A stretch of DNA of 64,000 nt, from IMG/VR virus record IMGVR_UViG_2901984674_000003; one strand, written 5' to 3'. Each line of letters opens with the position of its first letter. Position 1 is the stretch's first letter. This DNA is from a virus. Taxonomy: Duplodnaviria > Heunggongvirae > Uroviricota > Caudoviricetes. The notes below the pieces were generated by a model. The model was not told the DNA's origin. It did no database searches and saw only the letters and a program-made list of their open reading frames with translations. Of the stretch, positions 429 to 37,380 are shown one piece after another. The position numbers and the translations under genes are program-made.

Positions 429-1655
429 GTGAACCTAATGGAAATGCAAGTTACAATCAAGACTAAACTAAAGATTTCTAACTCTGAGATAGCTTTGAGT
501 TTTTCTAAAACAATGGAACAATACCGTCAAGCATGTAATTATGTATCTGAATACATTTTTAATCATGATTTTGATATGAAACAAAGTAGATTAAATAAAG
601 AACTATATACTAAGTTGCGCAATCTATTTAGTCTTAAATCGCAAATGGCTCAATCTGTAATTAGAACTGTTATTGCACGCTATAAGACCGTCAAAACTCA
701 AATGGCACGTAGACCTTATAAATATCAAGACCAAAATACTGGTGAGTGGTACCGTGAAGTACGTGATCTAAATTGGTTACATAAACCAATTTCTTTTAAT
801 CGCCCACAAGTTGACCTTCAACGTAATCGTGATTGGTCTTATTTAAGTAGTGGTCTATTATCTATTAACACCCTTGATGGTCGTGTTAAAGTTGAGCCTA
901 TTTGTCATGGATTCAATCAGTATCTTGATGGTACTTGGAAATTTGGTTTAGCTAAATTACTTAAATCTAGTGGCAAGTGGTATTTACATATTTCAGCCAC
1001 TAAAGAAGTCGCTGATTTTGATAAACAAACCGTAAAACACGTTGTCGGTATCGACCGTGGTTTACGCTTTTTAGCTACCAGCTATGATGAAAAAGGTAAA
1101 ACTGCCTTTTTTGACGGCCAAGCAATCATGCGTAAACGTGCTAAATATCAAAAACTTCGTGCCACTTTACAAGCTAAAGGAACTAAGTCAGCTAAAAGAC
1201 GTTTAAAAAAATTATCTGGACGAGAGAACCGTTGGATAAGTGATGTTAATCATTGCTTGTCTAAGACACTTGTCCAAAAATATGGTGCTAATACTTTGTT
1301 TGTCTTAGAAAACCTTAACGGTGTTTCTTTTGAACGTACTGACTTACCTAAAGCTTTGCGTAATCAAAATAAATCATGGGCTTTTTATCAATTAGAACAA
1401 TTTCTAACTTATAAAGCACACTTACACAATAGTGAAGTTGTTGAAGTTTCTGCTAAATATACATCTCAACGTTGTCCTAAATGCGGAGTTATCAAAAAAG
1501 ATAATCGCAATCATGAAAAACATGAATATCATTGTGATAACTGTAGTTATCGTTCTAACGATGACCGTATCGGTGCCATGAATATCCAATTACTTGGAAC
1601 TCAGTATATTAGCGGACAAGAACAACCTAAATTTGAACTAACAACTAATGCGTAA
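429..1655 (+). CDS. tnpB: TnpB (IS200/IS605 OrfB family RNA-guided endonuclease), copy 1
   Basis: 408-aa ORF with RuvC-I (VGIDRG), RuvC-II (VLENL), a CPKCG...CDNCS zinc finger and RuvC-III (NDDRIGAMNI). No adjacent tnpA. A TGgTATAAT extended -10 lies at about 402-410. Confidence 0.85.
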   Translation: MNLMEMQVTIKTKLKISNSEIALSFSKTMEQYRQACNYVSEYIFNHDFDMKQSRLNKELYTKLRNLFSLKSQMAQSVIRTVIARYKTVKTQMARRPYKYQDQNTGEWYREVRDLNWLHKPISFNRPQVDLQRNRDWSYLSSGLLSINTLDGRVKVEPICHGFNQYLDGTWKFGLAKLLKSSGKWYLHISATKEVADFDKQTVKHVVGIDRGLRFLATSYDEKGKTAFFDGQAIMRKRAKYQKLRATLQAKGTKSAKRRLKKLSGRENRWISDVNHCLSKTLVQKYGANTLFVLENLNGVSFERTDLPKALRNQNKSWAFYQLEQFLTYKAHLHNSEVVEVSAKYTSQRCPKCGVIKKDNRNHEKHEYHCDNCSYRSNDDRIGAMNIQLLGTQYISGQEQPKFELTTNA

Positions 1656-5400: not shown

Positions 5401-6124
5401 GCATACCACGTTTGGTAACTGCCCAACAGAATGTACCAATCAAGGTTGTAACTCCAAGCACCATAAAGGTATTTATAAACCATTGAACCGAATCACTCTT
5501 CAAACCTAAAGCCGCTGCCATATCAAGTGCGGTTTTATTTTTGGCTAACGTTCCACCAATTAGGTTAAATACATTCCATTTAGCAAAGAAGTTAATAATT
5601 AAGTACCAAGAGTTAATCATAATATCCATGACTGCTCCTAATACCGTTAAAATTAACCCTACAAAAAATCTGCCTACATACGATAAGAGTAAGGCAAAAC
5701 CATTACCTTGAGTCGAAATATAATTATAGTAGGATAAAGTAGCCATCAGCTCTGAAAAACGCTTGGCTTGTGCTTTGTCCTTAGAGTTATCAATTAGTTC
5801 TTGATAACCAAAAGTACCACTAGCCCCACCAGAACCTAAAATACCACTTTTATCCGTTTGTCCTAAAATGCCTTTCATCATTTTATCTGTAAAGCTTTGT
5901 TTACTTGTTGACGAACGGTTTTTTAATAGGAAGTATTGATAAACTGTAGCGATGTTATCACTATCATCAGCTTTGGTAGTTTGTGACAACATACCAAAGC
6001 TACCAAAGATTGTTAGGAGCAAAACACCTAAAACAACAAATTTACTTTTAAAAAACTTAAGTAAGCTTTGTTTTTTTAGAGAAGGCCTAACACTTTTTAC
6101 ATAATCCAAGAAAATCGCCTCCAT
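2393..6124 (-). CDS. Large polytopic membrane protein (1243 aa) with a long C-terminal coiled-coil, low-complexity tail and tandem repeats. A VirB6/TcpH/TrbL-like conjugation channel component is possible.
   Basis: N-terminal TM segment, at least 8 further predicted TM helices centrally, and a Q/K/D/A-rich coiled-coil C-terminal half. It sits in a block with an FtsK-like ATPase and a lytic enzyme elsewhere in the window. Confidence 0.6.
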   Translation of the reverse strand: MEAIFLDYVKSVRPSLKKQSLLKFFKSKFVVLGVLLLTIFGSFGMLSQTTKADDSDNIATVYQYFLLKNRSSTSKQSFTDKMMKGILGQTDKSGILGSGGASGTFGYQELIDNSKDKAQAKRFSELMATLSYYNYISTQGNGFALLLSYVGRFFVGLILTVLGAVMDIMINSWYLIINFFAKWNVFNLIGGTLAKNKTALDMAAALGLKSDSVQWFINTFMVLGVTTLIGTFCWAVTKRGMQNADYSKVKGRIIGLLMVPIAMMAGFELLSDITEYTSKDSASNTPFASYLMDVKTWAEKYNFDLTVANVKTNGKTKGFVMTKYNPYSGFNPVTGQSASDSLTQTIFHANDMSKGLFPNTNLAIDYLSSKVFDGYSYISYLQGDQSKTDGAYGSISSLVDSKGGKWIYDFDTPYSSTGIKLDDDYLKQNPMSKAKDDYVGKIDGDEKNVKSLASIWTDRYVYGYKNEGSKIEDYYKEGPSGEQISAAYGRNDKADGTALSVPSMFYVLNTHWNDQGGTFSITSPPTGAFKDIAKFADDRAVYYDVSMVGVPFFSVCGLIAIPLFTVLVFIAAVEAFLAMGILDMNMRPLRAWMLAIIKGDYEYSVAVIVYGLGLVGSIIMATVVPNMLIKFFTGSLSGIFSRLSSSADNGSMAGGIGLFFTAFLAIVFWVAYIKNVSGLRDKLTGFIMLPWTWASSTGQSLEDQANGGARNLVGRGSDLRNQKREQSALRNRNMINAAENWASGGGMKKTRFGRKLDDLTGNRISGAQGKLSRAALLAQHMMGNYADGVTGDDTHTAGENNLERIKRLGLAQRQTQKLAQLSRNAKNGKLGVDDKASEQIDNKIRNKIHPNDLSNLENGKALTDAYKQIDEADEQIGKDDDRINNIKKAIAFQDSIATNPNSDAKTVDKAMAKKRKLMQELEKAQQDKKEHQNQKANLQQVADDTVGKIKFNDNVEGLSKADTKYRQDLNKELDRINAKQDDIDNSRAIISDALADPNISDANKAKLKDQLQDLDRQQASLDSAKAVHAKKAKTYANSSIKRAEKLNNPKAVRESLQKLAQQATNQLNEFVDNPDEKKVKVLNEDFKHLKAQMDRYGITPDEIGFDPQAAMDDLAQNSGNLPDSVFDENALAIDENGLTDYAADYGRRNMIRRKGSIDSMETKDGSTLGDVMKNKVSFETKAPKEFNNADKLAQQVQQMRKASPVSGSGNGSKTIVQNNPANNDGTKVVQQTVGGGNPQQTVE

Positions 6125-6163
6125 TTTCGTTAATAAAGTAATATAAAATGCAACTCTTTAAGC

Positions 6164-9031
6164 TTATAATTTCTCAATAGGAATATAGCTTACTTCAACT
6201 GTTGGTCTATCACCAGTATTAGTTGTAAAACTGGCATTTTTAGCTTCAAGCTTAAACACTCCATCAATCGGTTGATTATGCCTTAATCTTTGTGCTAACA
6301 AACGTGTAACCTTAGTTTTAATCGAACCGTCAATATAACGTGTAATTGATCTTGCCCCTGAAGTTTTAGCTTCACTACCAACTAAGTCTTCGGCAATCAT
6401 TACTGAGATTGGATCATCATCGCCATACGGTGTATTAGCAAATGACATTTGGTTTTGCCACCAGGCATGACTCATCTTCTTAGGCAACATAATATCTATG
6501 TTGTATCTAGCGTGAGTCATGTTTTGTTTAAACCTCTCTAACTGCATTCTTGCAATCATCGCCATAGTCTTTCTAGCTAGTGGTAAGAATGGTACAAACA
6601 AGGAAAATCTTTCCAAGAACTCAGGCTTGATACCATTGTTCAACCCAGCGTCACCATTTTGCAAAGCTTTACGTACGGACGACTCTCGCCTCCACCATTC
6701 TTCTTCTAGTTGTGGATCTAATTCATTAGGGTTAGATTGACGGTTTAAATTCATAACTTGTGACAAGTCACTAAAGATGTCAGACCCTAAGTTAGATGTA
6801 GCGATAATAACGGTTGAGTTTAACGAACGTTGGTTGCCGTATTTATCTACAACAATACCTTCATCAATCATTCGCATATAGGTGTCCATAACCGTTTTAT
6901 GCGACTTTTCAATTTCGTCTAACAAGATAACTTGCCGTTTGTTTACCGTCATTTGATCTGCGATAAAACGTTGAGCTTTAATAGCACTTTCAGGAGTTGC
7001 ATAATCACCACCGTTAAGAGTTAAGATAGCATCTCTACGTCCATAAAAAGCTTGAGCCAAAGCTTTGGCTGTTTCACTTTTACCTACCCCAGTTGAACCT
7101 ACAAAGAAAGCTGTAAACAAAGGTCGTTTAAAATTACGCTCGGAATAAAAAGCGGTATTAACAACATCAGCTAGTTGGTATAAGGCTAATGGTTGACCTA
7201 AAACAGACTCGTTGACAACCTTAATGATATGTTCTGGAGGAACGTCTGTGTCAATCTCATAATCTTCAGCTAAGAAAGCTTGTCTTACAATTTCGTGTGT
7301 AATTTTATTACCTTTATTTTCATCTAAAACATGCAACCTTCTAGCAATCCCTACACAACTGTCCAAAATTGTTAAAGACTTGTCTGGGTTAACTTGGTTT
7401 TGAATAAAGGCATCAGCGTATTTTACAATTTCACGTAAAATATCATCTGAACATTCTGGAACAAAGTCTAACTTACCTTCCCATGAATCAACACGTCTAC
7501 GTAAGATCGTAACTGTTGTATCTAAATTAGGCGGAGTCATAATAACTTTGCCTAAACGTCTATCAAAAGCAGCGTCATTAACGATATAATCACGATATTC
7601 ATAGTCAGTTGTAGCTCCAATTAATGGAAACTTAGCTCTAGCAAGTCCTTCCTTTAAAGCGTTCATTGCAGCAGAAGATCCAGCTTTATTACTATCTGGC
7701 TTACCATAATTATACAACTTATGAATTTCATCTATGAACAAAACCATCTGAAATTTTTTATCAGGGTTTGCTTCAACGGTTGCTTTTTTGATTTCGTTTA
7801 AAGTTGGAAGTAGGTCTTTCATCTTAGAAATCATATCATTTTCACTTAGAGTACCTAGCTTTTCAACGTTTAACTCTACTACCACTACTGGCAGTGTTGT
7901 CAGTGAACGATTGTAGATCCATTGTTCAACCAAAGCTGTTTTACCAATACCTTGCTTACCTAAAAGCAAAGCAGAAGGTTTTTCTGGTCGATACATGGTT
8001 GAATCAAGCTTCATGATTTCTTCTTTATAACCTATTAAGGTATTCTTGCCTTTTTCCATCTTAGATAAAGAGTCGTTATAATCCTTTTGAATATCTGGAG
8101 GAATAACTAGGTTAATATCTCGTTCATCGTATGCACCAATCCTAAAACCATTAGCTAAAAAGACTTGTTCTAAGACTTCGTGCGTAATCTCCCAGCCATC
8201 ATCAGGGTTTTCTAAATGTCTGTTAGTACATAAACCTACGGCTGAGGCTAAAATATCAAGCGACTTACCAGGGTTAGCTTGATTGTAGATATAAGCGTTA
8301 GTGTAATCAATTAAATCACTTAACGTTTTATCTGATATTTCTGGTACAAATTTACCTGCATTTAACCAAGTGTTTAAGCTAGTCTTTAAGATCTTAAAAA
8401 CAATTGGTTTAGCTGGCTGTGTAATATAAATCTTAGCAAAACGTCTGTCAAACGCTCCATCAGGCTTGATGTTAATGCGATATTCATAGTCAGTTGTCGC
8501 AGCGATTACTGGGAATACACCTTCAGCTGTTTCTTCCTTAAAAGCGTTCATCGCACCGCTAGAACCAGCCTTTTCACCAACCCCTTTAGTAGCTTCACCA
8601 TAGTTGTTTAACTTGTGAATTTCATCTATAAATAAAGCCATTTGGAAGTTGATACTAGGGTTAGCTTCTTTAGTAGCGTCTTTAATTATTTGCATGTTAG
8701 TCAAAAGCTTACGCATTCTTGAAACCATAACATCAGATCCAAGTTCGCCTAAACGTTCAATGTCTAACTGTACTACTATTAATGGAATAGAAGTTTTAGC
8801 TCGTGTTTTAACCCAGTATCTAACTAAGGAAGTTTTACCTGAACCTTGCATACCTAACAACATTCCAGTTGGAGCTTTAGGGTTATACAAGACTGCATTT
8901 AAATCACTGATTTGTTTGTCGTAACCTAAGATTTCTTTATCGTTAGTTTTAATTTCTTCCAAAGAATAGTTATACTCTTTAGCAATATCTTCAGGTATAA
9001 CTAGTTTTAGATCATTTTTTAATCCTAACAT
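6164..9031 (-). CDS. Clp/Hsp100-like AAA+ ATPase with three nucleotide-binding modules (D1-D1-D2). It lacks the N-domain and the middle domain.
   Basis: Walker A GMQGSGKTSLV with LFIDEIHKL and ATTDYEYR...FDRRF (D1). The same is repeated with GKQGIGKTALV, LFIDEIHKL and GATTDYEYR...FDRRL. A third module has GSTGVGKSETAKALAQ...ILLDEIEKSH...IIATSNLG, the ClpA/B D2 signature. Confidence 0.7.
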   Translation of the reverse strand: MLGLKNDLKLVIPEDIAKEYNYSLEEIKTNDKEILGYDKQISDLNAVLYNPKAPTGMLLGMQGSGKTSLVRYWVKTRAKTSIPLIVVQLDIERLGELGSDVMVSRMRKLLTNMQIIKDATKEANPSINFQMALFIDEIHKLNNYGEATKGVGEKAGSSGAMNAFKEETAEGVFPVIAATTDYEYRINIKPDGAFDRRFAKIYITQPAKPIVFKILKTSLNTWLNAGKFVPEISDKTLSDLIDYTNAYIYNQANPGKSLDILASAVGLCTNRHLENPDDGWEITHEVLEQVFLANGFRIGAYDERDINLVIPPDIQKDYNDSLSKMEKGKNTLIGYKEEIMKLDSTMYRPEKPSALLLGKQGIGKTALVEQWIYNRSLTTLPVVVVELNVEKLGTLSENDMISKMKDLLPTLNEIKKATVEANPDKKFQMVLFIDEIHKLYNYGKPDSNKAGSSAAMNALKEGLARAKFPLIGATTDYEYRDYIVNDAAFDRRLGKVIMTPPNLDTTVTILRRRVDSWEGKLDFVPECSDDILREIVKYADAFIQNQVNPDKSLTILDSCVGIARRLHVLDENKGNKITHEIVRQAFLAEDYEIDTDVPPEHIIKVVNESVLGQPLALYQLADVVNTAFYSERNFKRPLFTAFFVGSTGVGKSETAKALAQAFYGRRDAILTLNGGDYATPESAIKAQRFIADQMTVNKRQVILLDEIEKSHKTVMDTYMRMIDEGIVVDKYGNQRSLNSTVIIATSNLGSDIFSDLSQVMNLNRQSNPNELDPQLEEEWWRRESSVRKALQNGDAGLNNGIKPEFLERFSLFVPFLPLARKTMAMIARMQLERFKQNMTHARYNIDIMLPKKMSHAWWQNQMSFANTPYGDDDPISVMIAEDLVGSEAKTSGARSITRYIDGSIKTKVTRLLAQRLRHNQPIDGVFKLEAKNASFTTNTGDRPTVEVSYIPIEKL

Positions 9032-19254: not shown

Positions 19255-19263
19255 CCATCTTAT

Positions 19264-19332
19264 AGCAGGCATGGTTGCTTTGTTAGGGTTCGATTCTCTA
19301 ACTGCTAATAGAGCTAAGCTAAAGCTTGGCTC
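19264..19332 (+). ncRNA. Degenerate tRNA-like minihelix plus hairpin unit (family 1, copy c)
   Basis: GCAGGcatggttgct...GGGTTCGATTCtc...CTGCT followed by a small hairpin; same architecture as the copies below. Confidence 0.35.
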
Positions 19333-19397
19333 AAGGTTGCAAACATTGTTTGCATCGCTCCTTTCGTTTTATATGTTACTTTACTTACTAACTGGGT

Positions 19398-19467
19398 GTG
19401 GCACGCATGGTTGCTATAATAACGGTTCGATTCCGTTAGTGCCAATAGGGTTGCCATAGACCCTATT
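19398..19467 (+). ncRNA. tRNA-like minihelix (acceptor stem plus T-arm, no D or anticodon arms) followed by a short hairpin (family 1, copy a)
   Basis: TGGCAC gcatggttgctataata ACGG-TTCGATT-CCGT ta GTGCCAA, then ATAGGGttgccatagaCCCTAT. Confidence 0.55.
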
Positions 19468-19495
19468 CTCCTTTATTTTATTGAATTAATTAAAT

Positions 19496-19572
19496 TGGTT
19501 GGCAGAATGGTTGCATCAAGGTTCAAGTCCTTGGCTGCCAATAGGGTTTGCCATAAACCCTTATAGATTGCG
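19496..19572 (+). ncRNA. tRNA-like minihelix plus hairpin (family 1, copy b)
   Basis: TGGCAG aatggttgcat CAAGG-TTCAAGT-CCTTGG CTGCCA, then AGGGTTTgccataAAACCCT. Confidence 0.5.
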
Positions 19573-19769
19573 AATATGATGTTAATGGAGGCGAAATACT
19601 TTTAATAAAAACATAGAACTATATAGAATAAAATAGAAATATAAGCTGTAATTAAATTATAAAAAGAATAAATGTAGGTAATTTAAGCATTGTACATGTG
19701 TTTTCTTATTGCTTATATGATTTACGTAAATATAAAAGTAAATAAAAAATGACAAATCTTTGAAAGGCG

Positions 19770-20933
19770 GTGAAAATGATGATTCGAGTTCAGAAGGTAA
19801 GACTTTATCCAAATCAAACGATGAAAAAGGTGCTTGATGATCTATGTGATTATCGTAGATACTGTTGGAATCAAGGCTTAGCTTTATGGAATGATATGTA
19901 TGATAGTTCTTTGATTTTAGATGATAAAAAGTTAAAACCTAGTGAACACAAGGTTCGTAATGAGTTAGTATCTAATAAAGAAGACTGGCAATATCAATTA
20001 TCAGCTCGTTGTTTGCAATTAGCGATTTCCGATTTAGGTAAAGCTTGGAGTAAGTTTTTTAATAAATCACAAGTTGACTGGGGTAAGCCAAAATTCAAAT
20101 CTAAAAAAGCTCCTAGACAAGGGTTTAAAACTGATAGAGCTAAGATTATCAATGGTAAGCTAAGGCTTGACAAACCACACGGAATCAAAACTTGGTATGA
20201 TATTAGTTTTAAAGGTGCTAAGAGTTTAGATGGTGATTTAAAAGTTATCTCAGTTTACCGTGAAAATGGCAAGTACTGGGCTAGTTTACCTTTTGAAGTT
20301 GAAATAGCCAAGAAAACTAAAACTGGTAAGAAAACAGCAGTTGATATTAATGTCGGTCATTTTAACTATACCGAAGGTAAAGTTAATACACTACCTAATC
20401 ATTTAAGAAAACTCTATAAACGTATCAAACATTACCAACGTCAGTTAGCTAAAAAACGTGTCGTTAATGGAAGAAAAGCTACTCAATCGCATAATTATGT
20501 TAAAACGAGAGCCAAGTTACAACGTGATTATCGTAAAGTAACTAATATCCAACATGATATTGTGCATAAATTTACAACTAAATTAGCAAGTGATTACGAT
20601 AAGATAGCCATTGAAAATTTAGCAGTGAAGAAAATGCAGATGACGCACGTTGCATCTAAAGGCTTACAAAGATCATTATTTGGCTATTTTAGACAAATAT
20701 TAGCTTATAAAGCCGATTGGTATGGTAAGAAAATAGTCTTAGCAAGTCAATTTTATCCAAGCACACAAAGATGTTCCAAATGTGGTTATATTAAGACTGG
20801 CGAAGATAAAATTGGTCTTGATGGAAACCAAAAACATAAGACTAAACATAATGAATATATTTGTTATGAATGTGGTTCGGTTATGGATAGAGATGAAAAT
20901 GCAGTAAAAAATCTTCTGGCTTTAATAGCTTAG
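19770..20933 (+). CDS. tnpB: TnpB (IS605 OrfB family), copy 2
   Basis: 387-aa ORF with RuvC-I VDINVGH, RuvC-II IAIENL, a CSKCG...CYECG zinc finger and RuvC-III DRDENAVKNL. A hairpin-rich 3' flank at 20934-21060 is the likely right end or omega-RNA. Confidence 0.85.
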   Translation: MKMMIRVQKVRLYPNQTMKKVLDDLCDYRRYCWNQGLALWNDMYDSSLILDDKKLKPSEHKVRNELVSNKEDWQYQLSARCLQLAISDLGKAWSKFFNKSQVDWGKPKFKSKKAPRQGFKTDRAKIINGKLRLDKPHGIKTWYDISFKGAKSLDGDLKVISVYRENGKYWASLPFEVEIAKKTKTGKKTAVDINVGHFNYTEGKVNTLPNHLRKLYKRIKHYQRQLAKKRVVNGRKATQSHNYVKTRAKLQRDYRKVTNIQHDIVHKFTTKLASDYDKIAIENLAVKKMQMTHVASKGLQRSLFGYFRQILAYKADWYGKKIVLASQFYPSTQRCSKCGYIKTGEDKIGLDGNQKHKTKHNEYICYECGSVMDRDENAVKNLLALIA

Positions 20934-21445
20934 AAATATTATGGGGTGGGCTTACACCCTCAAGCTATCAGAGTTAGTCAATGTCATTACCCTCTAGTTA
21001 GGATATGGGAATACTAATGTTGACGGTAGTAAATAAAATTTAGGAAGGGAAAAATGTATTCTTTCTAATAATATAGAAATAATAGATATTTTTCTATATT
21101 ATTCTAATTTTATATAGCAGTAAGAGATGCGAATATTAATAATTTTCTAGTTTTTTTGAATAAATTATATCAAATGATACTACTTAAAAATACACTTCAC
21201 TCAACCTAATGGAGTTAACCAGTCAACAAGCTTTTAGAATTAATTCTAAAAGCTCTTGTGGACAACTTTACAACTCATTTGGCAGTCGTGCTTTGTTTCA
21301 AAAATCATTTGTAAGCTTCTTAAATTAGAAATTTAAGTTTAGCTTAGCTGGAACTAATCCGATTCCATCTGTACCATCAGTAAAAGCATTCGGTACTACT
21401 TTTTTAATATTTGTAAGATTCTTTATATTTCATTCGACTTACAAG

Positions 21446-21493
21446 TTGGCACGCATGGTTGCTGTAATAACGGTTCAATTCCGTTAGTGCTAA
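21446..21493 (+). ncRNA. tRNA-like minihelix (family 1, copy d), fused directly to scaffold S1
   Basis: TTGGCAC gcatggttgctgtaata ACGG-TTCAATT-CCGT ta GTGCTAA, followed by 'ttg' and then GAGGACGCTTG... Confidence 0.55.
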
Positions 21494-21496
21494 TTG

Positions 21497-21636
21497 GAGG
21501 ACGCTTGTTCTTGACAGCTCGGTAAATATTTCTAGCCTCTACGGTGTAACGTTGGTTAATCTAACGGTAAAACATCGCAAGCATGGAAAGTTCCCAAGAA
21601 GCTTGTGTCACTATTAAATACAGTTAGAAAACAACG
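21497..21636 (+). ncRNA. Conserved ~140-nt RNA scaffold S1 (tracrRNA/omega-RNA-like), start GAGGACGCTTGTTCTTGACAGCTCGG and internal GTTCCCAAGAAGCTT box
   Basis: One of six paralogous copies (21497, 23281, 33711, 34380, 36074, 37098). Each lies between a tRNA-like element and a repeat array. Confidence 0.6.
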
Positions 21637-21861
21637 GTTATGAACCTAGGTTAAATGACATAGGTGTAAGACCAGCAGTGTAAAAGCTTAAAAGCTGTTG
21701 TTGTTTTGAACTTAGGTTGAATGATGTAGGTTGAAGACTATATAAAATCTAGCATAGAAACTCTTGCATTTTGAACCTAGTTAAAATGACGTAAGTATAA
21801 GACAGAATACTGTATAGAGAGTTATGTTCTGAACTTAGCTAAAACAAACATAAGATAAGAC
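21637..21861 (+). CRISPR. CRISPR-like array A1: 4 repeats (36, 36, 35 and 33 nt, increasingly degenerate distally) with 30, 30 and 25-nt spacers
   Basis: The repeats are GTTATGAACCTAGGTTAAATGACATAGGTGTAAGAC, GTTTTGAACTTAGGTTGAATGATGTAGGTTGAAGAC, TTTTGAACCTAGTTAAAATGACGTAAGTATAAGAC and CTGAACTTAGCTAAAACAAACATAAGATAAGAC. The spacers are unique. Confidence 0.7.
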
Positions 21862-21982
21862 ATATCACAGGTTTATCTCACAAGCATTTTGGAATAAAAG
21901 CTAGTTCGATTCTAGCTATGCTTATTACCATTACTAAGCTTCGTAATGGTAACACACTTGCACTAAAACTATTACTTATAGG

Positions 21983-22046
21983 TTGGTAGAGTGGTTGTAT
22001 CGAGGTTCGATTCCTTGGCTACCAATAGGGTTGTCATAGACCCTAA
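21983..22046 (+). ncRNA. tRNA-like minihelix plus hairpin (family 1, copy e)
   Basis: TTGGTAG agtggttgtat CGAGG-TTCGATT-CCTTGG CTACCAA, then TAGGGttgtcatagaCCCTA. Confidence 0.5.
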
Positions 22047-22074
22047 AACTATTTCCTCTTATTGTAGGCTGCAA

Positions 22075-22335
22075 TGCCTTATTATATAAACTCCGTCAAC
22101 AGTAACCACCTACTAAAGTAGGTAACTTGTAGTAATACAAGTTTTGTTGTCTAGACTAAGTTCTTAGAGAACTACGTTATTTCAGTGATCATACCTAGAA
22201 ATGGTACCCTAGTTTCTAGCTCTATGAAGGCTCTGTAAACAAGCATAAGGTTAATGTGCTAGTCAACCTTGTAATAAGCTGAAATAACATTGTCGAAGGG
22301 TAACCACATGTATTTATTAACTCTGATAAATACGT
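22075..22335 (+). ncRNA. Orphan IscB omega-RNA-like scaffold (copy B) with no adjacent iscB ORF
   Basis: About 70% identical over about 240 nt to the region immediately upstream of iscB at 42370-42633. Shared blocks include CGTCAACAG(T)AACCACC(T)ACTAAAGTAGGT..CTTGTAG.AATACAAGTT and CGAAGGGTA(A)CCAC. The 5' flank (guide position) differs. Confidence 0.6.
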
Positions 22336-22378
22336 GATAAGGTCATTAATACCTTATATACTCCTTAAAATATTTGGT

Positions 22379-22443
22379 TGGCACGCATGGTTGCTATAAT
22401 AGTGGTTCGATCCCACTTGTGCTAATAGGGTGTAATAGCCCTA
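22379..22443 (+). ncRNA. tRNA-like minihelix plus hairpin (family 1, copy f)
   Basis: TTGGCAC gcatggttgctataat AGTGG-TTCGATC-CCACT t GTGCTAA, then TAGGGtgtaataGCCCTA. Confidence 0.5.
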
Positions 22444-22483
22444 ATGGTTGTATATTACTCCTTTTTAAAAAGTTACTTATAGG

Positions 22484-22549
22484 CTGGCACACATGGTTGT
22501 CTTGCAACAGTTCGATTCTGTTGGTGCCAATTGTAGCATTAAGCTACAA
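22484..22549 (+). ncRNA. tRNA-like minihelix (family 1, copy g)
   Basis: CTGGCAC acatggttgtcttgc AACAG-TTCGATT-CTGTT g GTGCCAA. Confidence 0.45.
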
Positions 22550-22627
22550 ACTCAAAACTTTTTCTCTTTAGAGTAATAAAAAAATTACTCTAACTAACAT
22601 AACTCCTTGATTTAATATATGATTTGG

Positions 22628-22696
22628 TTGGCACGTACGGTTACTTTATGGTAGTTCGACTCTACCAGTGCTAATTGCCTTTGGTAAAACGAAGGC
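22628..22696 (+). ncRNA. tRNA-like minihelix plus hairpin (family 1, copy h)
   Basis: TTGGCAC gtacggttactttatg GTAG-TTCGACT-CTAC ca GTGCTAA, then GCCTTTggtaaaacGAAGGC. Confidence 0.5.
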
Positions 22697-22761
22697 TAAA
22701 ATAACCCTTCTTATGGGGCAACAAAAATATCTTTCCTTTATAAGGTTTTTCTCTCAAATAG

Positions 22762-22831
22762 GTTGGCACGTACGGTTGCTTCTATAGTGGTTCGACTCCG
22801 CTAGTGCCAATAGGTTAGGGTTAATCCTAAC
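22762..22831 (+). ncRNA. tRNA-like minihelix plus hairpin (family 1, copy i)
   Basis: TTGGCAC gtacggttgcttctat AGTGG-TTCGACT-CCGCT a GTGCCAA, then GGTTAGGgttaatCCTAACC. Confidence 0.5.
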
Positions 22832-22993
22832 CGCCTACCTTATGTTATTTTTGGTGCTGGACTTTGCCTCCTGTACAAGGCTATGAAAAAAGTCAAAACG
22901 AACTGTTAAACAAACTAAGGCTGTACACCTGACAAGAGTGGGTGTTTGCAAGACAGTTCCTTGTATTTCGTTAGTTGGCCTTTGGAAATACAG

Positions 22994-23059
22994 TTGGTAA
23001 CACGGTTGTGACGTCAAGGTTCGACTCCTTGTTTACCAATAGGGCTAAGATAAGCCCTA
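22994..23059 (+). ncRNA. tRNA-like minihelix plus hairpin (family 1, copy j)
   Basis: TTGGTAA cacggttgtgacgt CAAGG-TTCGACT-CCTTG t TTACCAA, then TAGGGCTaagataAGCCCTA. Confidence 0.5.
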
Positions 23060-23084
23060 AATAAATCATAACATTAATTCAAGG

Positions 23085-23156
23085 TTGGCACGCATGGTTG
23101 CTATAATAACGGTTCGATTCCGTTAGTGCCAATAGCCTTTGCCAACGCAAGGGCTA
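23085..23156 (+). ncRNA. tRNA-like minihelix plus hairpin (family 1, copy k)
   Basis: TTGGCAC gcatggttgctataata ACGG-TTCGATT-CCGT ta GTGCCAA, then TAGCCTTTGccaacGCAAGGGCTA. Confidence 0.5.
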
Positions 23157-23215: not shown

Positions 23216-23277
23216 TAGCGATGTAGCTTAACGGTAGAGCAAGGCATGGGATACAGGTTCGACTCCTGTCATCGCTA
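23216..23277 (+). ncRNA. tRNA-like element (family 2, copy l): acceptor stem, D-arm and T-arm present, but the anticodon arm is collapsed to 13 nt. Fused to scaffold S2.
   Basis: TAGCGAT g TAGCTTAACGGTAGAGC aaggcatgggata CAGG-TTCGACT-CCTG tc ATCGCTA, followed by 'ttg' and then AAGGACGCTTG. Confidence 0.55.
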
Positions 23278-23280
23278 TTG

Positions 23281-23441
23281 AAGGACGCTTGTTCTTGACA
23301 GCTTGGTAAACATCTCTAACCTCTGCATAATCGCAACTTGCATTAGTTAGTTAGCGATTATGTAAGTCTAAAGAGTTCCCAAGAAGCTTATGTCAAAGTT
23401 AAATATAGGTTTTGAGCCTAGTTGAAAGCATAAGCTAAGAC
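23281..23441 (+). ncRNA. Scaffold S2 plus a single degenerate repeat (GGTTTTGAGCCTAGTTGAAAGCATAAGCTAAGAC). The guide position runs into the RBS and start of ORF 23462.
   Basis: Paralogous to S1, S3, S5 and S6. The lone repeat ends at 23441 and is followed by TAAATGATTATATCAAGGAGGTGGTT, which is the 5'UTR and GTG start of the next gene. Confidence 0.5.
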
Positions 23442-23461
23442 TAAATGATTATATCAAGGAG

Positions 23462-33523: not shown

Positions 33524-33657
33524 ATAAACGTAAGGCAAAGGGTTAAGCCTACAGGGACATCAGTAAACTACATGTAAGCCTCTATCGTTCCTGTAAGCAT
33601 TAGCACAAGCCTTATAATCTTAACTTTATCTTTATTCATTTATGTACATTTTATGTG

Positions 33658-33707
33658 TAGCGATGCCAAACGGTAGATCAATGCAGGTGCAATTCCTGCC
33701 ATCGCTA
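33658..33707 (+). ncRNA. tRNA-like minihelix (family 2, copy m; acceptor plus T-arm), fused to scaffold S3
   Basis: TAGCGATG ccaaacggtagatcaat GCAGG-TGCAATT-CCTGC CATCGCTA, followed by 'ttg' and then GAGGACGCTTG. Confidence 0.5.
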
Positions 33708-33710
33708 TTG

Positions 33711-33852
33711 GAGGACGCTTGTTCTCGACAGCTTGGTTAATATCTTTGACCTCTGTATAATCGCAAATTGCATTAGTTTGTTTACGATTATGCAAGTCTG
33801 AAGAGTTCCCAAGAAGCTTATGCCACAATTAAATACAGGTTAGAAAATAACG
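33711..33852 (+). ncRNA. Scaffold S3 (tracrRNA/omega-RNA-like)
   Basis: GAGGACGCTTGTTCTCGACAGCTTGG...GAGTTCCCAAGAAGCTTATG...AAATACAGGTTAGAAAATAACG. Confidence 0.6.
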
Positions 33853-34284
33853 GTTCTGAACCTAGGCTAAATGACATAGGTTGAAGACTTACGGTAGAAT
33901 GTATCTTCAATTTTTCTAGTTCTGAACCTAGGCTAAATGACATAGGTTGAAGACGCTACTACTCATTGTGAACTTAAACTGGTTGTTCTGAACCTAGGCT
34001 AAATGACATAGGTTGAAGACAGTACTAGCGGCTCATCTGCATATATACTAGTTCTGAACCTAGTTGAATTGACATAGGTGTAAGACCATTGAAGTTCGTA
34101 TGGTGGATATCATCTAGTTCTGAACCTAAGTTAAATAACATAGGTGTAAGACATAGGTTTAATGATTGCTCCAATGGTTGAAGTTCTGAGCCTAAGTTAA
34201 ATGGCATAGGTGTAAGACTCACGTTTATGTGAGTGATTATAATTCACAGTTCTGAGCCTAAGTTAAATGACATAGGTGCAAGAC
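33853..34284 (+). CRISPR. CRISPR-like array A3: 7 direct repeats of 36 nt separated by six unique 30-nt spacers, at an exact 66-nt period
   Basis: Repeats start at 33853, 33919, 33985, 34051, 34117, 34183 and 34249. Consensus is GTTCTGAACCTAGGCTAAATGACATAGGTTGAAGAC, with 1-5 nt drift in distal units. The repeat contains the palindrome AACCTAGGTT and a potential CCTAGG/CATAGG hairpin. Spacers are non-repetitive and differ in GC content from one another. Confidence 0.85.
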
Positions 34285-34314
34285 TGAAATCATGGGCTTA
34301 ATTAAAGTCAAAAC

Positions 34315-34376
34315 AACGATGTAGCTCAATGGTAGAGCAAAGCGAGGCGACGTAGGTTCGATTCCTACCATCGTTA
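34315..34376 (+). ncRNA. tRNA-like element (family 2, copy n; D-arm and T-arm present, anticodon arm reduced to 13 nt), fused to scaffold S4
   Basis: AACGATG TAGCTCAATGGTAGAGC aaagcgaggcgac GTAGG-TTCGATT-CCTAC CATCGTT a, followed by 'ttg' and then GAGGGTGCTTG. Confidence 0.55.
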
Positions 34377-34379
34377 TTG

Positions 34380-34505
34380 GAGGGTGCTTGCTCTTCACAG
34401 TTTGGTTAACATCTTCGCAAACAAAGTTGCTGATTGCATTTCTTTGTTGAAGAGTTCCCAAAAAGCGCTGATAGCACAAATAAAGACGTCCATTGTGGAA
34501 GACTA
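34380..34505 (+). ncRNA. Divergent scaffold S4 plus one degenerate repeat (...CCATTGTGGAAGAC), immediately upstream of tnpB-3
   Basis: GAGGGTGCTTGCTCTTCACAGTTTGG...GAGTTCCCAAAAAGCGCTG is paralogous to the other scaffolds at about 75% identity. Confidence 0.45.
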
Positions 34506-34544
34506 ATGTAGTGTAGTCAGCTGAAAGACTATACATAAATTACG

Positions 34545-36026
34545 TTGGTGTTTAAAAAGGAGTTGGAAAAAATGGAAGAAAAAGTTTTAGAAAGTCGTAG
34601 AATTAGAATTTATCCTACTAAGGATCAACAAGCATATTTAACGTTTAATATGTTTGCTAATATCAAGATGTGGAACGCATTACTAGCTGAAGTTTATAAG
34701 CCAGTTAGTGAGTTAGATGAAGTTCAAGCTTTACCTAGAAACAAACAAAGTAAAGAAGTTTATAAACGCATTGAAAGAATGTCATGGGAAGAGCAACGTG
34801 ATTTGTTCAAAGGTTTACGTGGACTTTCGACTAAGGCTATTTACGATGCTGATGAAACTGTGTTTGAAAGTGGTTGGACTTTAAAAGACGCTGATACTAG
34901 CATGTATAGTTACACTTTACGTACTTTAAAAACAGCGATGAGCAACCATTTGAAAAACCCTAGACACTTTGGTATTCCTAGGTTTAAGACAACAATGGAC
35001 GTTGAAAATCAAGGTAGTTATACCTCAGGCGCTCATGTTTGTGAAATCAGTGAAGACGGCAAGTACCTTAGAGTAGGTAAATTGAAAAGATTTAAGTTAG
35101 GCTTAATTGAGATGGCTAATCACTATCCTAGTGACGGACGTTTGTATAAAGTAACAATTAAGCATGAATCCAGCGATACTTGGTATGTATCATTTGTGTT
35201 TGAACAAGCTGAGCATACAGTAAAACGTCCTAGAACTGGTTTAGCAGCTGGTATTGACTTAAACGTAACAGGTAACAGTCATATTGTTTTACAAGATGGT
35301 ACTAGATACCAATTGCCATATGACAAAATCAGAAAATTAGAACAAAAGATTGAAAAAGAAAACGTAAAACGTAGTCGCAAGTATGAACAATGGAAAAAAG
35401 AGGTTGCAATCATTGAAGAAGACAATAAAAAATCCTTAATTCCAAAGCATGTTCCTACTTTAGCCGAACGTAGCAATTACCAAAAGAACAAAAAGAAGAT
35501 TGCTAAGTTACATTTACGCATTAAAAACTTGAAAAAAGACTATATTAAAAAAACATGTTCAAAGCTTGCTAATGAATATGATGTAATCGTTATGGAAGAC
35601 CTAGCTGTTTCAGATATGGAAAAGAATAAATACCGTGCTAGAGCAATCACTAGATCAAACTTCCGTGAAATTAGAGATACGCTTACTTATATGATGGACT
35701 GGGCTGATAAAAAGATTGTGTTTATTGATCGTTGGTCACCAACTTCAAAGCGTTGCCATACTTGTGGTTACATTAAGCACAACCTTAAATTAAGCGACCG
35801 TAAGTGGACTTGCCCTATCTGTAATTCTCACCATGATCAAGACATAAACGCAGCTAAAAACATCTTAGATGAAGGCTTAGACTTGCTAGACAAAATGAAT
35901 GATTCTTGCAAGAAATGTGGGCATGAGCGTACGGTTATTACAACAGACGAAAAGTGGACATGTACAAAGTGTGGAGCTAAAAATAAAACCACACCTAAAG
36001 AAGAAAATAGTAGCGATGTAGCCTAA
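34545..36026 (+). CDS. TnpB/Cas12-like RNA-guided nuclease (493 aa) flanked on both sides by scaffold plus CRISPR-like array modules. Candidate type V-U-like effector.
   Basis: The TnpB-type N-terminus (RIRIYPTKDQQAYL...), RuvC-I (AAGIDLNVTG), RuvC-II (VIVMEDLAV), zinc finger CHTCG...CPICN and RuvC-III (HDQDINAAKNI), plus an extra C-terminal CKKCG...CTKCG finger. Its stop codon lies inside tRNA-like element o. Confidence 0.85.
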   Translation: MVFKKELEKMEEKVLESRRIRIYPTKDQQAYLTFNMFANIKMWNALLAEVYKPVSELDEVQALPRNKQSKEVYKRIERMSWEEQRDLFKGLRGLSTKAIYDADETVFESGWTLKDADTSMYSYTLRTLKTAMSNHLKNPRHFGIPRFKTTMDVENQGSYTSGAHVCEISEDGKYLRVGKLKRFKLGLIEMANHYPSDGRLYKVTIKHESSDTWYVSFVFEQAEHTVKRPRTGLAAGIDLNVTGNSHIVLQDGTRYQLPYDKIRKLEQKIEKENVKRSRKYEQWKKEVAIIEEDNKKSLIPKHVPTLAERSNYQKNKKKIAKLHLRIKNLKKDYIKKTCSKLANEYDVIVMEDLAVSDMEKNKYRARAITRSNFREIRDTLTYMMDWADKKIVFIDRWSPTSKRCHTCGYIKHNLKLSDRKWTCPICNSHHDQDINAAKNILDEGLDLLDKMNDSCKKCGHERTVITTDEKWTCTKCGAKNKTTPKEENSSDVA

Positions 36027-36070
36027 CGGTAAGGCAAGGTAACAGATGCAGGTTCGACTCCTACCATCGT
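36009..36070 (+). ncRNA. tRNA-like element (family 2, copy o) overlapping the last 6 codons and stop of tnpB-3; fused to scaffold S5
   Basis: TAGCGATG TAGCCTAACGGTAAGGC aaggtaacagat GCAGG-TTCGACT-CCTAC CATCGTTA, followed by 'tag' and then GAGGACGCTTG. Confidence 0.55.
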
Positions 36071-36073
36071 TAT

Positions 36074-36215
36074 AGGAGGACGCTTGTTCTCGACAGCTTG
36101 GTAAATATCTTTAACCTCTACAGTATCAGTTAGTTAATCTAGCAGAAAGATATTGCAAGTAAGAAGAGTTCCCAAGAAACTTATGTCGAAATTAAATATA
36201 GGTTAGAAAACAACG
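36074..36215 (+). ncRNA. Scaffold S5, in the position expected for the tnpB-3 omega-RNA/tracr
   Basis: GAGGACGCTTGTTCTCGACAGCTTGGTAAATATCT...GAGTTCCCAAGAAACTTATG...AAATATAGGTTAGAAAACAACG. It is 3'-adjacent to tnpB-3, as omega-RNAs are for TnpB. Confidence 0.6.
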
Positions 36216-36450
36216 GTTCTGAACCTAGGTTAAATGACATAGGTGTAAGACATACTCGTGGTGTCTAATTATAAGACGTTCGTTCTGAACCTAGGTTAAA
36301 TGACATGGGTGCAAGACCGTGCCTTCGATTCCTTCGCTTGGGAGATCGTTCTGAACCTAGGTTAAATGACATAGGTGTAAGACGTCTCAGGAGGAAAAAA
36401 TCAAAAATATGAGTTCTGAACCTAGTTAGAATGACACATAGGCGCAAGAC
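36216..36450 (+). CRISPR. CRISPR-like array A5: 4 repeats (36, 36, 36 and 37 nt) with three 30-nt spacers
   Basis: Repeats at 36216, 36282, 36348 and 36414 match GTTCTGAACCTAGGTTAAATGACATAGGTGTAAGAC, and the last is degenerate. Spacer 2 is GC-rich (CGTGCCTTCGATTCCTTCGCTTGGGAGATC) and spacer 3 resembles a gene start (CAGGAGGAAAAAATCAAAAATATGAG). Confidence 0.8.
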
Positions 36451-36479
36451 ATATAGAGGAGCCGATCAAAAAAATATTC

Positions 36480-37094
36480 AACGTTCAAATAACGCTTCAA
36501 GCATAACCGATTGCATAAGGGCTTTAATCAAGTCTTATCGGACATCTGCCTGTAATTCGTAGTAGGTATAGTCTGAGTGATAGCTTAGACAAGCCGAGAG
36601 ATGATTGGTAACAATTATCAAACCTAGTAAAAGCTAGGACGTTTGGTAGGTGTGTGGAAATGTGTGACGTTAGTGCTTTGCTAACCGTTGGCACTGGATA
36701 AAATAGACGCTCACGGTGTGAGAATAACCCATTGGCAGCTTAGTGTGGTAGCTAAGTGATGTGATGGGAATAACCAAAGACAGTGTTTGCCTTGACGTTT
36801 AGGAAACTAAGCTATAACAACGGAAACAAGAACGAGTAGGGTAATGGCATCGAGATTACAGTAATTTCGCTACTGGACTTGAAATCCACATGCGACGATT
36901 AAGACAAATAAAATAATTCTGAATGATTGCCTGAAAGTTGGTACTTATCATAGTAGCCACGTTATATAAAGCAAAAGGAAGTAGCAAGGTAGCTCCTTGT
37001 TGCTCAGACCTTTTGAAACGTTCGCATAATAAGCGGTAGCACATTGTAAGCAGAGTGAAAGCTCGTGCTTGAAGTGTTGTTTGAGCGTTAAATA
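36480..37094 (+). other. About 600-nt ORF-free, relatively GC/purine-rich region between array A5 and scaffold S6. Candidate structured ncRNA or decayed gene.
   Basis: There is no ORF of 60 aa or more on the + strand, and composition differs markedly from the AT-rich intergenic DNA nearby. It occupies the slot where the other units carry a tRNA-like element. Confidence 0.3.
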
Positions 37095-37097
37095 TTG

Positions 37098-37222
37098 GAG
37101 GACGCTTGTTCTCGACAGCTTGGTAAAAATCTCTAGCCTCTACGGTGTTAGCTAGTTAATCTAGCAATAAAGCATTGCAAGCATGGAGAGTTCCCAGGAA
37201 GCTTATGTCAAAATTAAATATA
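37098..37222 (+). ncRNA. Scaffold S6
   Basis: GAGGACGCTTGTTCTCGACAGCTTGGTAAAAATCTCTAGCCTCTACGG...GAGTTCCCAGGAAGCTTATG. It is closest to S1. Confidence 0.55.
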
Positions 37223-37380
37223 GGTTCTAAACCTAGTTGAATTGACGTAGGTGTAAGACCTTAGATTTTTAGGAGTTGTTGTTCTGAACCTAATTGAATT
37301 AGCATAGGTATAAGACGAGGCTGTCTATTTGCTAATTAAATAATAAGTTTTGAACTTAGTTAAATGGCACAAGCAAAGAC
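37223..37380 (+). CRISPR. CRISPR-like array A6: 3 repeats (37, 36 and 34 nt) with 21- and 30-nt spacers
   Basis: GGTTCTAAACCTAGTTGAATTGACGTAGGTGTAAGAC, GTTCTGAACCTAATTGAATTAGCATAGGTATAAGAC and GTTTTGAACTTAGTTAAATGGCACAAGCAAAGAC. Confidence 0.65.

Follow-up and report, generated by a model that had tools for sequence, protein, structure and literature searches.

The 64,000-nucleotide (nt) stretch of DNA described here, called the window throughout, is the IMG/VR virus record IMGVR_UViG_2901984674_000003, and the subject of this article is its unit U1, a small cassette in which a mini tRNA-like element, a guide-RNA scaffold, and a short array of repeats and spacers follow one another. Over long collinear stretches the window is 95-99% identical to a linear 166.6-kb plasmid of Ligilactobacillus salivarius ZSA5 (NZ_CP123973.1), and it encodes several plasmid functions (RepA_N, a ParM/Alp7A-like protein, ParA, a DnaB-like helicase, and an FtsK-like ATPase). 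On the strength of this likeness, the carrier of U1 is read as a linear L. salivarius megaplasmid. Six scaffold units (U1-U6; E-values of 1e-24 to 1e-39) occur in the window and none elsewhere in it, all family repeats lie on the plus strand, and there is one effector gene, TnpB-3. Rfam recognizes in the window a ROOL RNA (36483-37083), two HEARO elements (the IscB omegaRNA; 22095-22307 and 42371-42584), a Transposase-1 RNA (20965-21023), and three weak tRNA hits; ARAGORN makes no tRNA call in it. Four related plasmids are compared: the window, the ZSA5 plasmid, V2529 (IMG/VR UViG_2529292852_000001), and V2791 (IMG/VR UViG_2791355382_000001). This article presents U1 as a probable satellite guide-RNA module used by TnpB-3 from a distance.

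Structure of the U1 cassette

A preliminary description of this DNA placed a scaffold and a four-repeat array, fused to a tRNA-like element, at 21446-21861. U1 is a real scaffold-array cassette in which all of the described elements are present, far beyond chance: a profile built from the six window copies finds the scaffold at E=2e-38, four 36-nt repeats follow it, and a structural parse recovers the tRNA-like element. The unit was drawn too short only at its 3' end, where a 20-nt guide-like sequence continues to 21881 and abuts another tRNA-like element (21882-21924). The consensus of the 36-nt family repeat is GTTCTGAACCTAGGTTAAATGACATAGGTGTAAGAC, from which R1-R4 deviate at 1, 7, 7, and 13 positions. 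The degeneration toward the distal end described earlier is borne out, although the identities are 35, 29, 29, and 23 of 36 rather than 36/36, about 30/36, and about 22/33. A shuffled window yields 0.15 repeat hits even when as many as 13 mismatches are allowed, and the 3' end AAGAC is invariant across all four U1 repeats.

The element at 21447-21493 has a 6-bp acceptor stem (TGGCAC/GTGCTA), a D-like stub, a 5-bp T arm (AACGG/CCGTT) closed by a TTCAATT loop, and a discriminator base (A21493), without CCA. It therefore keeps the acceptor stem and the T arm with T-loop of a tRNA, whereas only 15 nt lie between the two and the anticodon arm and full D arm are missing; neither ARAGORN nor Rfam calls a tRNA here. 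The U1 scaffold begins on the base immediately after the discriminator. TRNA-like elements flank U1 on both sides, within a long string of such elements. The segment made up of the tRNA-like element and the scaffold is 98.3% identical between the window and V2529, compared with 77-93% for the flanks.

Table 1. Features of U1, its surroundings, and its sister units (window coordinates)
Feature	Coordinates	Strand	Basis or remark
TnpB-2 insertion sequence (IS), outside the system, later insertion	19684-21121	+	gene 19770-20933; absent in V2529 and V2791
Right-end remnant of another TnpB IS, outside the system	21135-21417	-	last ~31 codons and ~190 nt of 3' flank; missing from V2529 and V2791
U1 mini tRNA-like element	21447-21493	+	structural parse; covariation over 20 elements; direct fusion to scaffold in U1-U5
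U1 scaffold (omegaRNA/tracrRNA-like), 143 nt	21494-21636	+	nhmmer, E=2e-38 against profile of six window copies
Repeat R1	21637-21672	+	35/36 to consensus; 9/9 pairing with U1 anti-repeat 1
Spacer S1, 30 nt	21673-21702	+	protospacer not found
Repeat R2	21703-21738	+	29/36 to consensus; 9/9 pairing with anti-repeat 1 via wobbles
Spacer S2, 29 nt	21739-21767	+	protospacer not found
Repeat R3	21768-21803	+	29/36 to consensus; common to V2529 U1
Spacer S3, 22 nt, short	21804-21825	+	common to V2529, with one mismatch
Terminal repeat R4, degenerate	21826-21861	+	23/36; 3' AAGAC kept; conserved in all four plasmids
Trailing guide-like sequence, 20 nt	21862-21881	+	conserved in four plasmids; ends exactly at start of next tRNA-like element
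Downstream mini tRNA-like element	21882-21924	+	structural parse; minimum-free-energy fold is acceptor stem plus T arm
U2: family-2 tRNA-like element, scaffold, one degenerate repeat; second distal unit	23217-23445	+	profile and structure matches
U3: tRNA-like element, scaffold, seven repeats and six spacers	33658-34314	+	two spacers match L. salivarius plasmids
U4: tRNA-like element and shortened scaffold, no array	34315-34502	+	directly upstream of TnpB-3
TnpB-3, sole cognate effector gene	34563-36026	+	487 amino acids (aa) from ATG; open reading frame opens at TTG 34545
U5: tRNA-like element, scaffold, four repeats	36012-36482	+	tRNA-like element overlaps TnpB-3 stop codon
U6: scaffold fused 10 nt past ROOL (36483-37083), with two repeats at the search threshold	37093-37346	+	profile; Rfam

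Scaffold folding and anti-repeat pairing

The evidence for the structure of the scaffold is comparative. Across 12 scaffolds RNAalifold finds 28 base pairs, 13 of which show compensatory changes, including the helix between anti-repeat and repeat, and U1 keeps 27 of the 28. The first helix joins the scaffold anti-repeat CTTATGTCA to the repeat segment TGACATAGG (segments GCTTATG(TCA) and (TGA)CATAGGT). A second complementarity lies between the scaffold 3' end AGGTTAGAA and the repeat 5' end TTCTGAACCT; by reading of the sequences, its two sides change jointly in the homologous loci L005 and L011 (AGGTA/TACCT and ATAGG...TTAG/CTAA-CCTAT). Covariation shows that the scaffold, which is the leader of its own array, carries two anti-repeats predicted to pair with the repeat. 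In U1, anti-repeat 1 is CTTGTGTCA (21602-21610), to which R1-R3 each pair at nine of nine positions through wobble-compatible changes, and anti-repeat 2 is AGTTAGAA (21622-21629).

Because the scaffold pairs with the repeat through two anti-repeats, the scaffold together with the first repeat and spacer would resemble a natural single guide, folding as an omegaRNA does, and later repeat units would pair with the scaffold in trans, in the manner of a CRISPR RNA (crRNA) and its trans-activating CRISPR RNA (tracrRNA), where CRISPR stands for clustered and regularly interspaced short palindromic repeats. In U6 and in the U1 of ZSA5, the loop between anti-repeat 2 and repeat 1 is lost, giving a hairpin more like that of a single guide RNA (sgRNA). 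The fusion of scaffold and repeat 1 and these compact variants suggest that both a single omegaRNA-like guide and a split tracrRNA/crRNA guide may be used. Single-sequence folding was no better than shuffles for the scaffold (z=-0.9) or for the scaffold with R1 (z=-0.1), and a different inner fold was favored in the case of the U1 tRNA-like element; the comparative analysis alone was informative. Rfam holds no family matching the scaffold or the mini tRNA-like elements.

The TnpB-3 effector and its dispersed scaffolds

TnpB-3 contains the Pfam domains OrfB_IS605 and Cas12f1-like_TNB. Its RuvC triad (D/E/D) is intact when aligned to the catalytic motifs of ISDra2 TnpB, and an extra zinc ribbon is found at the C terminus. 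The clade is narrow, comprising about 25 protein clusters before identity falls to generic TnpB levels, and scans of species-representative genome contigs (with the single protein and with a nine-sequence alignment) returned no close relative, only generic TnpBs of 21-35% identity. In contrast to the mobile TnpBs of the IS605 type, TnpB-3 is present as one syntenic copy in each of the four plasmids, and no tnpA gene lies next to it.

The scaffold accompanies this protein wherever it was retrieved. Every clade-member context (L005, L007, L009, L011, and L016, with homologues of 47-95% identity) contains a scaffold, although the order of parts varies. In L005 and L007 (64-70% identity) the order is ROOL, scaffold, array of 36-nt repeats and 30-nt spacers, and gene; in L011 (~50%) a tRNA-like element, scaffold, and array precede the gene, with an IscB gene nearby; and in L009 (47%) the gene comes first, with the scaffold 37 nt past its stop codon and an array with a different repeat after it. 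The 3' side of tnpB is the usual position of an omegaRNA. In the L009 locus (2787-7760), whose surroundings resemble a prophage, a 1066-aa SIR2-domain gene immediately precedes that of the homologue, which at 440 aa is the most distant member of the clade; the repeat of this locus, GTTAAGTCCACGCATGTGGGGAAGATTC, is matched by an anti-repeat in its own scaffold. Among ten IMG/VR pattern hits, five lack the scaffold. Because scaffold and protein co-vary across unrelated contigs, the scaffold family, and hence U1, is tied to TnpB-3. That U1 shares its scaffold and repeat family with the TnpB-3 locus, as was first described, is also borne out by six scaffolds that match one profile and by a common repeat consensus.

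The four plasmids carry one TnpB-3 gene each (95-99% identity in V2529 and V2791) and six (window), six (ZSA5), nine (V2529), and seven (V2791) scaffolds. Orthologues of U1 and U2 stand in orthologous places, about 9-12.7 kb from the TnpB-3 gene, in all four. The use of U1 in trans, a possibility raised in the preliminary description that fits all of the comparative evidence, draws its main support from this conserved arrangement. Use of U1 by a TnpB-3 encoded 12.7 kb away is well supported by these comparisons; present activity of U1, and processing by RNase P and RNase Z at its tRNA-like elements, would follow as predictions.

Other genes of this kind surround the system. The ZSA5 plasmid holds many TnpB copies and two IscB copies, and TnpB-1 of the window (429-1655; 408 aa) is a TnpB-family gene about 26% identical to TnpB-3 over 99 residues only.

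Insertions upstream of U1

The nearest gene to U1 is TnpB-2, a classical TnpB accompanied by an RNA of its own (Rfam Transposase-1, RF03014, at 20965-21023, 74.7 bits). It was correctly described at the outset as an unrelated TnpB of the IS605 type: it has its own omegaRNA, and it is 28% identical to TnpB-3. RF03014 finds nothing within 21447-21881, even at E up to 1, its sole match being that at 20965-21023. Matches to other copies of the TnpB-2 element (e.g., that of pMP1046B) stop at about 21121. Beyond this point, the segment at 21135-21417 is 93% identical to an intact copy of a 448-aa TnpB-family gene, which has no significant similarity to TnpB-3 (E=0.09).

In V2529 and V2791, the interval 19576-21444 is represented by only about 167 bp of tRNA-like spacer sequence, and U1 directly follows the tRNA-like cluster. 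Because both plasmids lack the TnpB-2 IS and the 21135-21417 remnant, these are later arrivals in the lineage of the window and ZSA5. Comparison of the plasmids shows that both insertions entered a spacer of about 55 nt between two tRNA-like elements, and that U1, as far as this record extends, never adjoined a nuclease gene of its own. The alternative offered earlier, that U1 is the remnant of a lost cognate nuclease gene, is contradicted, since neither V2529 nor V2791 has such a gene where the window has 20934-21440. As for a deletion scar of a TnpB-3-like gene in that region, the remains of a TnpB gene do lie there, but on the opposite strand and from the unrelated 448-aa TnpB.

Spacer content, targets, and adaptation

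The arrays combine 36-nt repeats with 30-nt spacers and adjoin the homologues in L005, L007, L009, L011, L016, V2529, and V2791. Window U1 and ZSA5 U1 have flanks, scaffold, terminal repeat, and IS insertions in common and none of three spacers; to judge by this comparison, U1 has exchanged its spacers after the IS insertion. On the leader-proximal side, window U3 exceeds its ZSA5 counterpart by five spacers, and the distal spacer is common to both. The 19 nt at 21734-21752 of the window (the end of R2 and the start of S2) resemble the reverse complement of L001 5664-5682 (ZSA5 U1 spacer 1) at 18 positions, possibly by chance. Copies or remnants of an IS with a 418-aa TnpB gene lie in or beside sister-plasmid arrays (L001 ~6190-7724; L002 ~6600-8130), and one remnant lies inside the U1 array of V2529 (1292-1540; reverse complement of L033+L026).

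About 60 spacers were searched, including those of the arrays of L016 and of two IMG/VR contigs. The phage collection gave no match for the U1 region or for 18 spacers. Nine protospacers were examined, none of them for window U1. Seven lie in other L. salivarius plasmids (pMP1046B, pMP118, 27-kb MOBV plasmids, and megaplasmids of 248-275 kb), one in the window plasmid's own family, and one, a weaker match (28/30), in Lactiplantibacillus plasmids. Spacers of the sister arrays match L. salivarius plasmids at 28-30 of 30 positions, and the ZSA5/V2791 allele of U1 has a spacer that matches many L. salivarius plasmids at 31 of 32 positions, beside TTTT. In eight of the nine protospacers, TTT occupies positions -4 to -2 or -5 to -3 (background 7%); the motif is 5' TTTN, of the TnpB/Cas12 kind. 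A candidate 3' motif, GT at +6/+7, seen in three of four protospacers, did not persist when more protospacers were added. Two arrays independently hold spacers from one site of a small repeated plasmid open reading frame, offset by 1 nt. Kin are among the targets: a spacer of L016 (2014-2043) matches the tRNA-like region of window U3 (33655-33684; 27/30, beside TTTTAT), so the window plasmid is itself a predicted target, whereas L016's own copy has no T-rich flank; a spacer of L005 matches the ROOL gene of relatives (29/30). The system appears to be aimed at rival, often kin, plasmids.

No cas1, cas2, or cas4 gene is annotated on the 166.6-kb ZSA5 plasmid. Adaptation genes are likewise absent from subtypes V-F and V-M and from most of V-U, and they are not strictly defining for type V. 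What was found here is a single RuvC effector with intact residues, an array linked to that effector, and protospacers with a 5' protospacer-adjacent motif (PAM), none of these protospacers being matched by window U1. Plasmid protospacers, the TTTN motif, and the lack of cas1, cas2, and cas4 together point to a TnpB-derived, adaptation-less, miniature CRISPR system resembling type V. When the family repeat (e.g., 36216-36251) is set against GTTTCAGAAGGATGTTAAATCAATTAGGTTAAGACC, the type II-A repeat of L. salivarius, about 27 of 36 positions align, a score equalled by none of 5000 shuffles, and the geometry of repeat and spacer is that of the L. salivarius II-A arrays. This resemblance raises, without establishing it, the idea that host adaptation proteins fill the arrays; the likeness of the repeats could reflect mimicry by which those proteins are borrowed, or capture of a host array.

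tRNA-like elements and associated noncoding RNAs

Between 19263 and 23132 there are 14 mini tRNA-like elements. Three elements of a second family, ahead of U2, U4, and U5, keep the D arm and align to the Rfam tRNA model with about 6 nt where the 17-nt anticodon arm belongs. The acceptor and T stems covary strongly: across 20 elements, 93.8% of cells are paired as against 63.6% after shuffling, with a covariation score of 0.875 against 0.24 that none of 500 shuffles reaches; this signal is partly circular, as the elements were chosen for pairing, whereas the variety of pair types is not. In L005, L007, and L011, genuine tRNAs stand at equivalent places, one of them beginning 9 nt past the effector stop codon.

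The acceptor stem and T arm are the parts of a tRNA that RNase P and RNase Z recognize, as in minihelix substrates. Because these parts are kept and each guide module is bracketed by tRNA-like elements, the elements would punctuate a long precursor and set the ends of scaffolds and terminal guides. In U1, the element at 21447-21493 would serve as an RNase P/RNase Z handle that sets the 5' end of the scaffold, and the RNase P site of the element at 21882-21924 would set the 3' end of the transcript.

About a dozen mini tRNA-like elements without scaffolds (19263-19541 and 21984-23132) are each followed by a short hairpin such as TAGGGTTGCCATAGACCCTA. The HEARO element at 22095-22307 is an orphan with a mini tRNA-like element on either side, and the IscB gene (42371-43992, with its own HEARO) is 20 kb away; the orphan is absent from this place in ZSA5 and V2529, but V2791 and pLMP1046 have it elsewhere. 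Within the tRNA-like string it has the look of a second guide module acting in trans. In the window (36483-37093), L005 (4743-5330), L007 (5072-5660), and L016 (4914-5530), a TnpB-3 scaffold and array come about 10-20 nt after ROOL, a linkage that holds in lineages with effectors of only 64-70% identity to TnpB-3.

Other units in the window

All scaffolds but that of U4 run into repeats or repeat arrays rather than a single boundary guide. The U4 scaffold (34315-34523) has no helix D, anti-repeat pairing, or array, and ends in GGAAGAC just before the TnpB-3 ribosome-binding site; a 20-nt U4 "guide" matching an adhesin gene (62991-63010) at 16 of 20 positions was judged a chance match, with its mismatches proximal to the PAM and no TTTN. 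The U5 scaffold starts 46 nt past the TnpB-3 stop codon, behind a family-2 tRNA-like element (36012-36072) that covers the stop codon itself (36024-36026). RNase P cleavage at that element would truncate the TnpB-3 mRNA and may provide an autoregulatory link, reminiscent of the way TnpB turns its own mRNA into omegaRNA.

Proposed function and alternative explanations

With a probability of about two in three, U1 supplies satellite guide RNAs, used in trans by TnpB-3, to a miniature CRISPR system of type V-like character that derives from TnpB and sits on the L. salivarius megaplasmid. In the mechanism proposed, host RNase P and RNase Z would cut the tRNA-like elements of a long precursor to yield guide modules with defined ends, and the U1 RNAs would be loaded by TnpB-3 made elsewhere on the plasmid. 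TnpB-3 would then cut spacer-matching DNA that carries the 5' TTTN; motif and protospacers were found for the sister arrays, and cleavage is predicted from the RuvC triad. The spacer matches suggest that the role would be exclusion of rival, often related, plasmids. Several points weigh against this account. Expression and processing of the U1 RNAs are predictions, and RNase P and RNase Z are expected to cut the tRNA-like elements from what is generally known of minihelix substrates. There is no convincing promoter directly upstream of U1, and 1.9 kb of IS DNA lies between U1 and the upstream tRNA-like cluster. S1-S3 and the trailing 20-mer have no match in the phage and plasmid collections, the window, or the retrieved loci. 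No other unit has repeats as heterogeneous as these (7, 7, and 13 mismatches), and the third spacer is only 22 nt long. Anti-repeat 2 (AGTTAGAA) lacks a G, the 5' end of R1 reads TTAT rather than TTCT, and the helix between them is weakened. Spacers would, moreover, have to be acquired without cas1 and cas2.

Because its spacers are untargeted (none of three has a protospacer), its repeats divergent, its second anti-repeat weakened, its upstream region filled by IS DNA, and its promoter unclear, the main rival is that U1 has become a non-functional relic, in decay, of this system, a duplicated unit that has ceased to be expressed or loaded and is kept by linkage alone; the IS right-end remnant inside the V2529 U1 array also fits such decay. 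This explanation is unlikely, though far from negligible. A relic is not expected from a scaffold with 27 of 28 pairs, full nine-position pairing of R1-R3 preserved by wobble-compatible changes, an invariant AAGAC in all four repeats, and a tRNA-like and scaffold segment better conserved than its flanks, nor from a unit that is present in all four plasmids, has exchanged its spacers since the IS insertion, and in its ZSA5/V2791 allele has a spacer for L. salivarius plasmids beside TTTT. The other explanations dispute the partner of U1. It is improbable that the arrays address the host type II-A Cas9, whether as decoys or as mini-arrays, for although repeat sequence and array geometry resemble those of the II-A system, the repeat is complementary to anti-repeats of a co-encoded scaffold that covary across lineages with different repeats, the part of the repeat with which the II-A tracrRNA would pair differs at many positions, and the protospacers show a 5' T-rich motif, as in type V, and no consistent 3' motif. 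Loss of an adjacent TnpB-3-like gene from 20934-21440 is very improbable: the TnpB gene fragment there might be taken for its trace, but that fragment is the right end of an IS, lies on the opposite strand, and has a parent unlike TnpB-3, while V2529 and V2791 have only the short tRNA-like spacer in its place and each of the four plasmids has exactly one TnpB-3 gene. Service of the U1 RNAs to TnpB-2 is scarcely credible. All that speaks for it is nearness, with U1 some 0.5 kb downstream on the same strand; against it, an omegaRNA already accompanies TnpB-2, which is 28% identical to TnpB-3, other copies of the element sit in unrelated contexts (e.g., pMP1046B), and no TnpB-2 stands beside U1 in V2529 or V2791.

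A more far-reaching and tentative possibility is that the locus as a whole is a natural tRNA-punctuated polycistronic guide operon, in which tRNA-like elements and ROOL would free guides both for TnpB-3 and for IscB (from the orphan HEARO), with six to nine cassettes per effector and with arrays refilled by the host II-A proteins Cas1, Cas2, and Csn2 through repeat mimicry. The system would be a living example of the passage from TnpB to Cas12, in which the omegaRNA scaffold is still joined to the first repeat and the cassette has multiplied and dispersed around one effector. If RNase P and RNase Z cut the tRNA-like elements, the tRNA-gRNA (guide RNA) multiplexing of genome engineers would already be used by nature. 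A TnpB-like system predicted from its intact RuvC to be nuclease-active would join the known means of competition between plasmids, and ROOL, an RNA of unknown function, gains a conserved physical link to a guide-RNA locus. Possible tools include minimal handles of acceptor stem plus T arm, a predicted nuclease of 487 aa, and a simple TTTN motif.

Comparison with known systems

The closest parallels are intermediates between TnpB and Cas12, namely TranC (Jin et al., Cell 2025, as summarized in PMC13565253) and the candidate V-U* variants of type V (Altae-Tran et al., PNAS 2023; PMC10691335). These systems likewise pair a small TnpB-like RuvC effector with a short CRISPR array lacking cas1 and cas2, and use a guide resembling an omegaRNA that is divided between a tracr-like scaffold and units of repeat and spacer; the L009 scaffold, in the omegaRNA position 3' of its gene, adds to the likeness. 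Here, however, one effector gene comes with six to nine copies of the scaffold, and every copy is fused to an array that it leads. The units lie as far as 12.7 kb from the gene, and each is joined to a tRNA-like element or ROOL RNA. Because ISDra2 TnpB matches TnpB-3 better (E=8e-28) than does LaTranC (E=6e-16, over residues 311-450 only), TnpB-3 is placed outside the LaTranC clade.

With Cas12f (V-F), the system shares a miniature effector of 400-550 aa with a Cas12f1-like TNB domain. In both there is an anti-repeat of the tracrRNA kind, the PAM is T-rich and lies on the 5' side, and the arrays lack an adaptation module. Unlike in Cas12f, the scaffold is contiguous with the first repeat and there is no separate tracrRNA gene, and the matches of Cas12f-type PDB entries to TnpB-3 are confined to its C-terminal zinc ribbon, with E-values of no better than 1e-5 to 1e-4.

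Plasmid-borne type IV and V-M systems have a known role against rival plasmids (PMC11656645). Like them, the present system is carried by a mobile element, lacks an adaptation module, and has spacers that match plasmids of the same species, kin included (the L016 spacer for window U3 and the L005 spacer for a relative's ROOL). Unlike them, it has a TnpB-like effector with an intact RuvC triad, neither DinG-dependent nor a nuclease-dead binder, and its arrays bring their own scaffolds and effector rather than borrowing a host system.

Guides are reportedly freed from engineered arrays in the polycistronic tRNA-gRNA (PTG) design of Xie et al. of 2015, and the tRNA-like/pre-miRNA fusions of murine gammaherpesvirus 68 are cut by RNase Z. 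The likeness lies in guides flanked by tRNAs or tRNA-like structures, from which host RNase P and RNase Z would here free exact ends; in contrast to these engineered or eukaryotic-viral cases, the present elements are natural, bacterial, and plasmid-borne and have lost the anticodon arm. A tRNA-flanked icrRNA in Haloferax (PMC4326828) is a further engineered case. The literature search found tRNA-guide fusions only as engineered precedents and nothing connecting L. salivarius with TnpB arrays; a preprint on a phage "Cas12 hacker" deals with a different system. Set beside all of these systems, what appears to distinguish the present one is the combination of array-contiguous scaffolds, dispersed cassettes for each effector, fusion to tRNA-like elements or ROOL, and a repeat that resembles that of type II-A.

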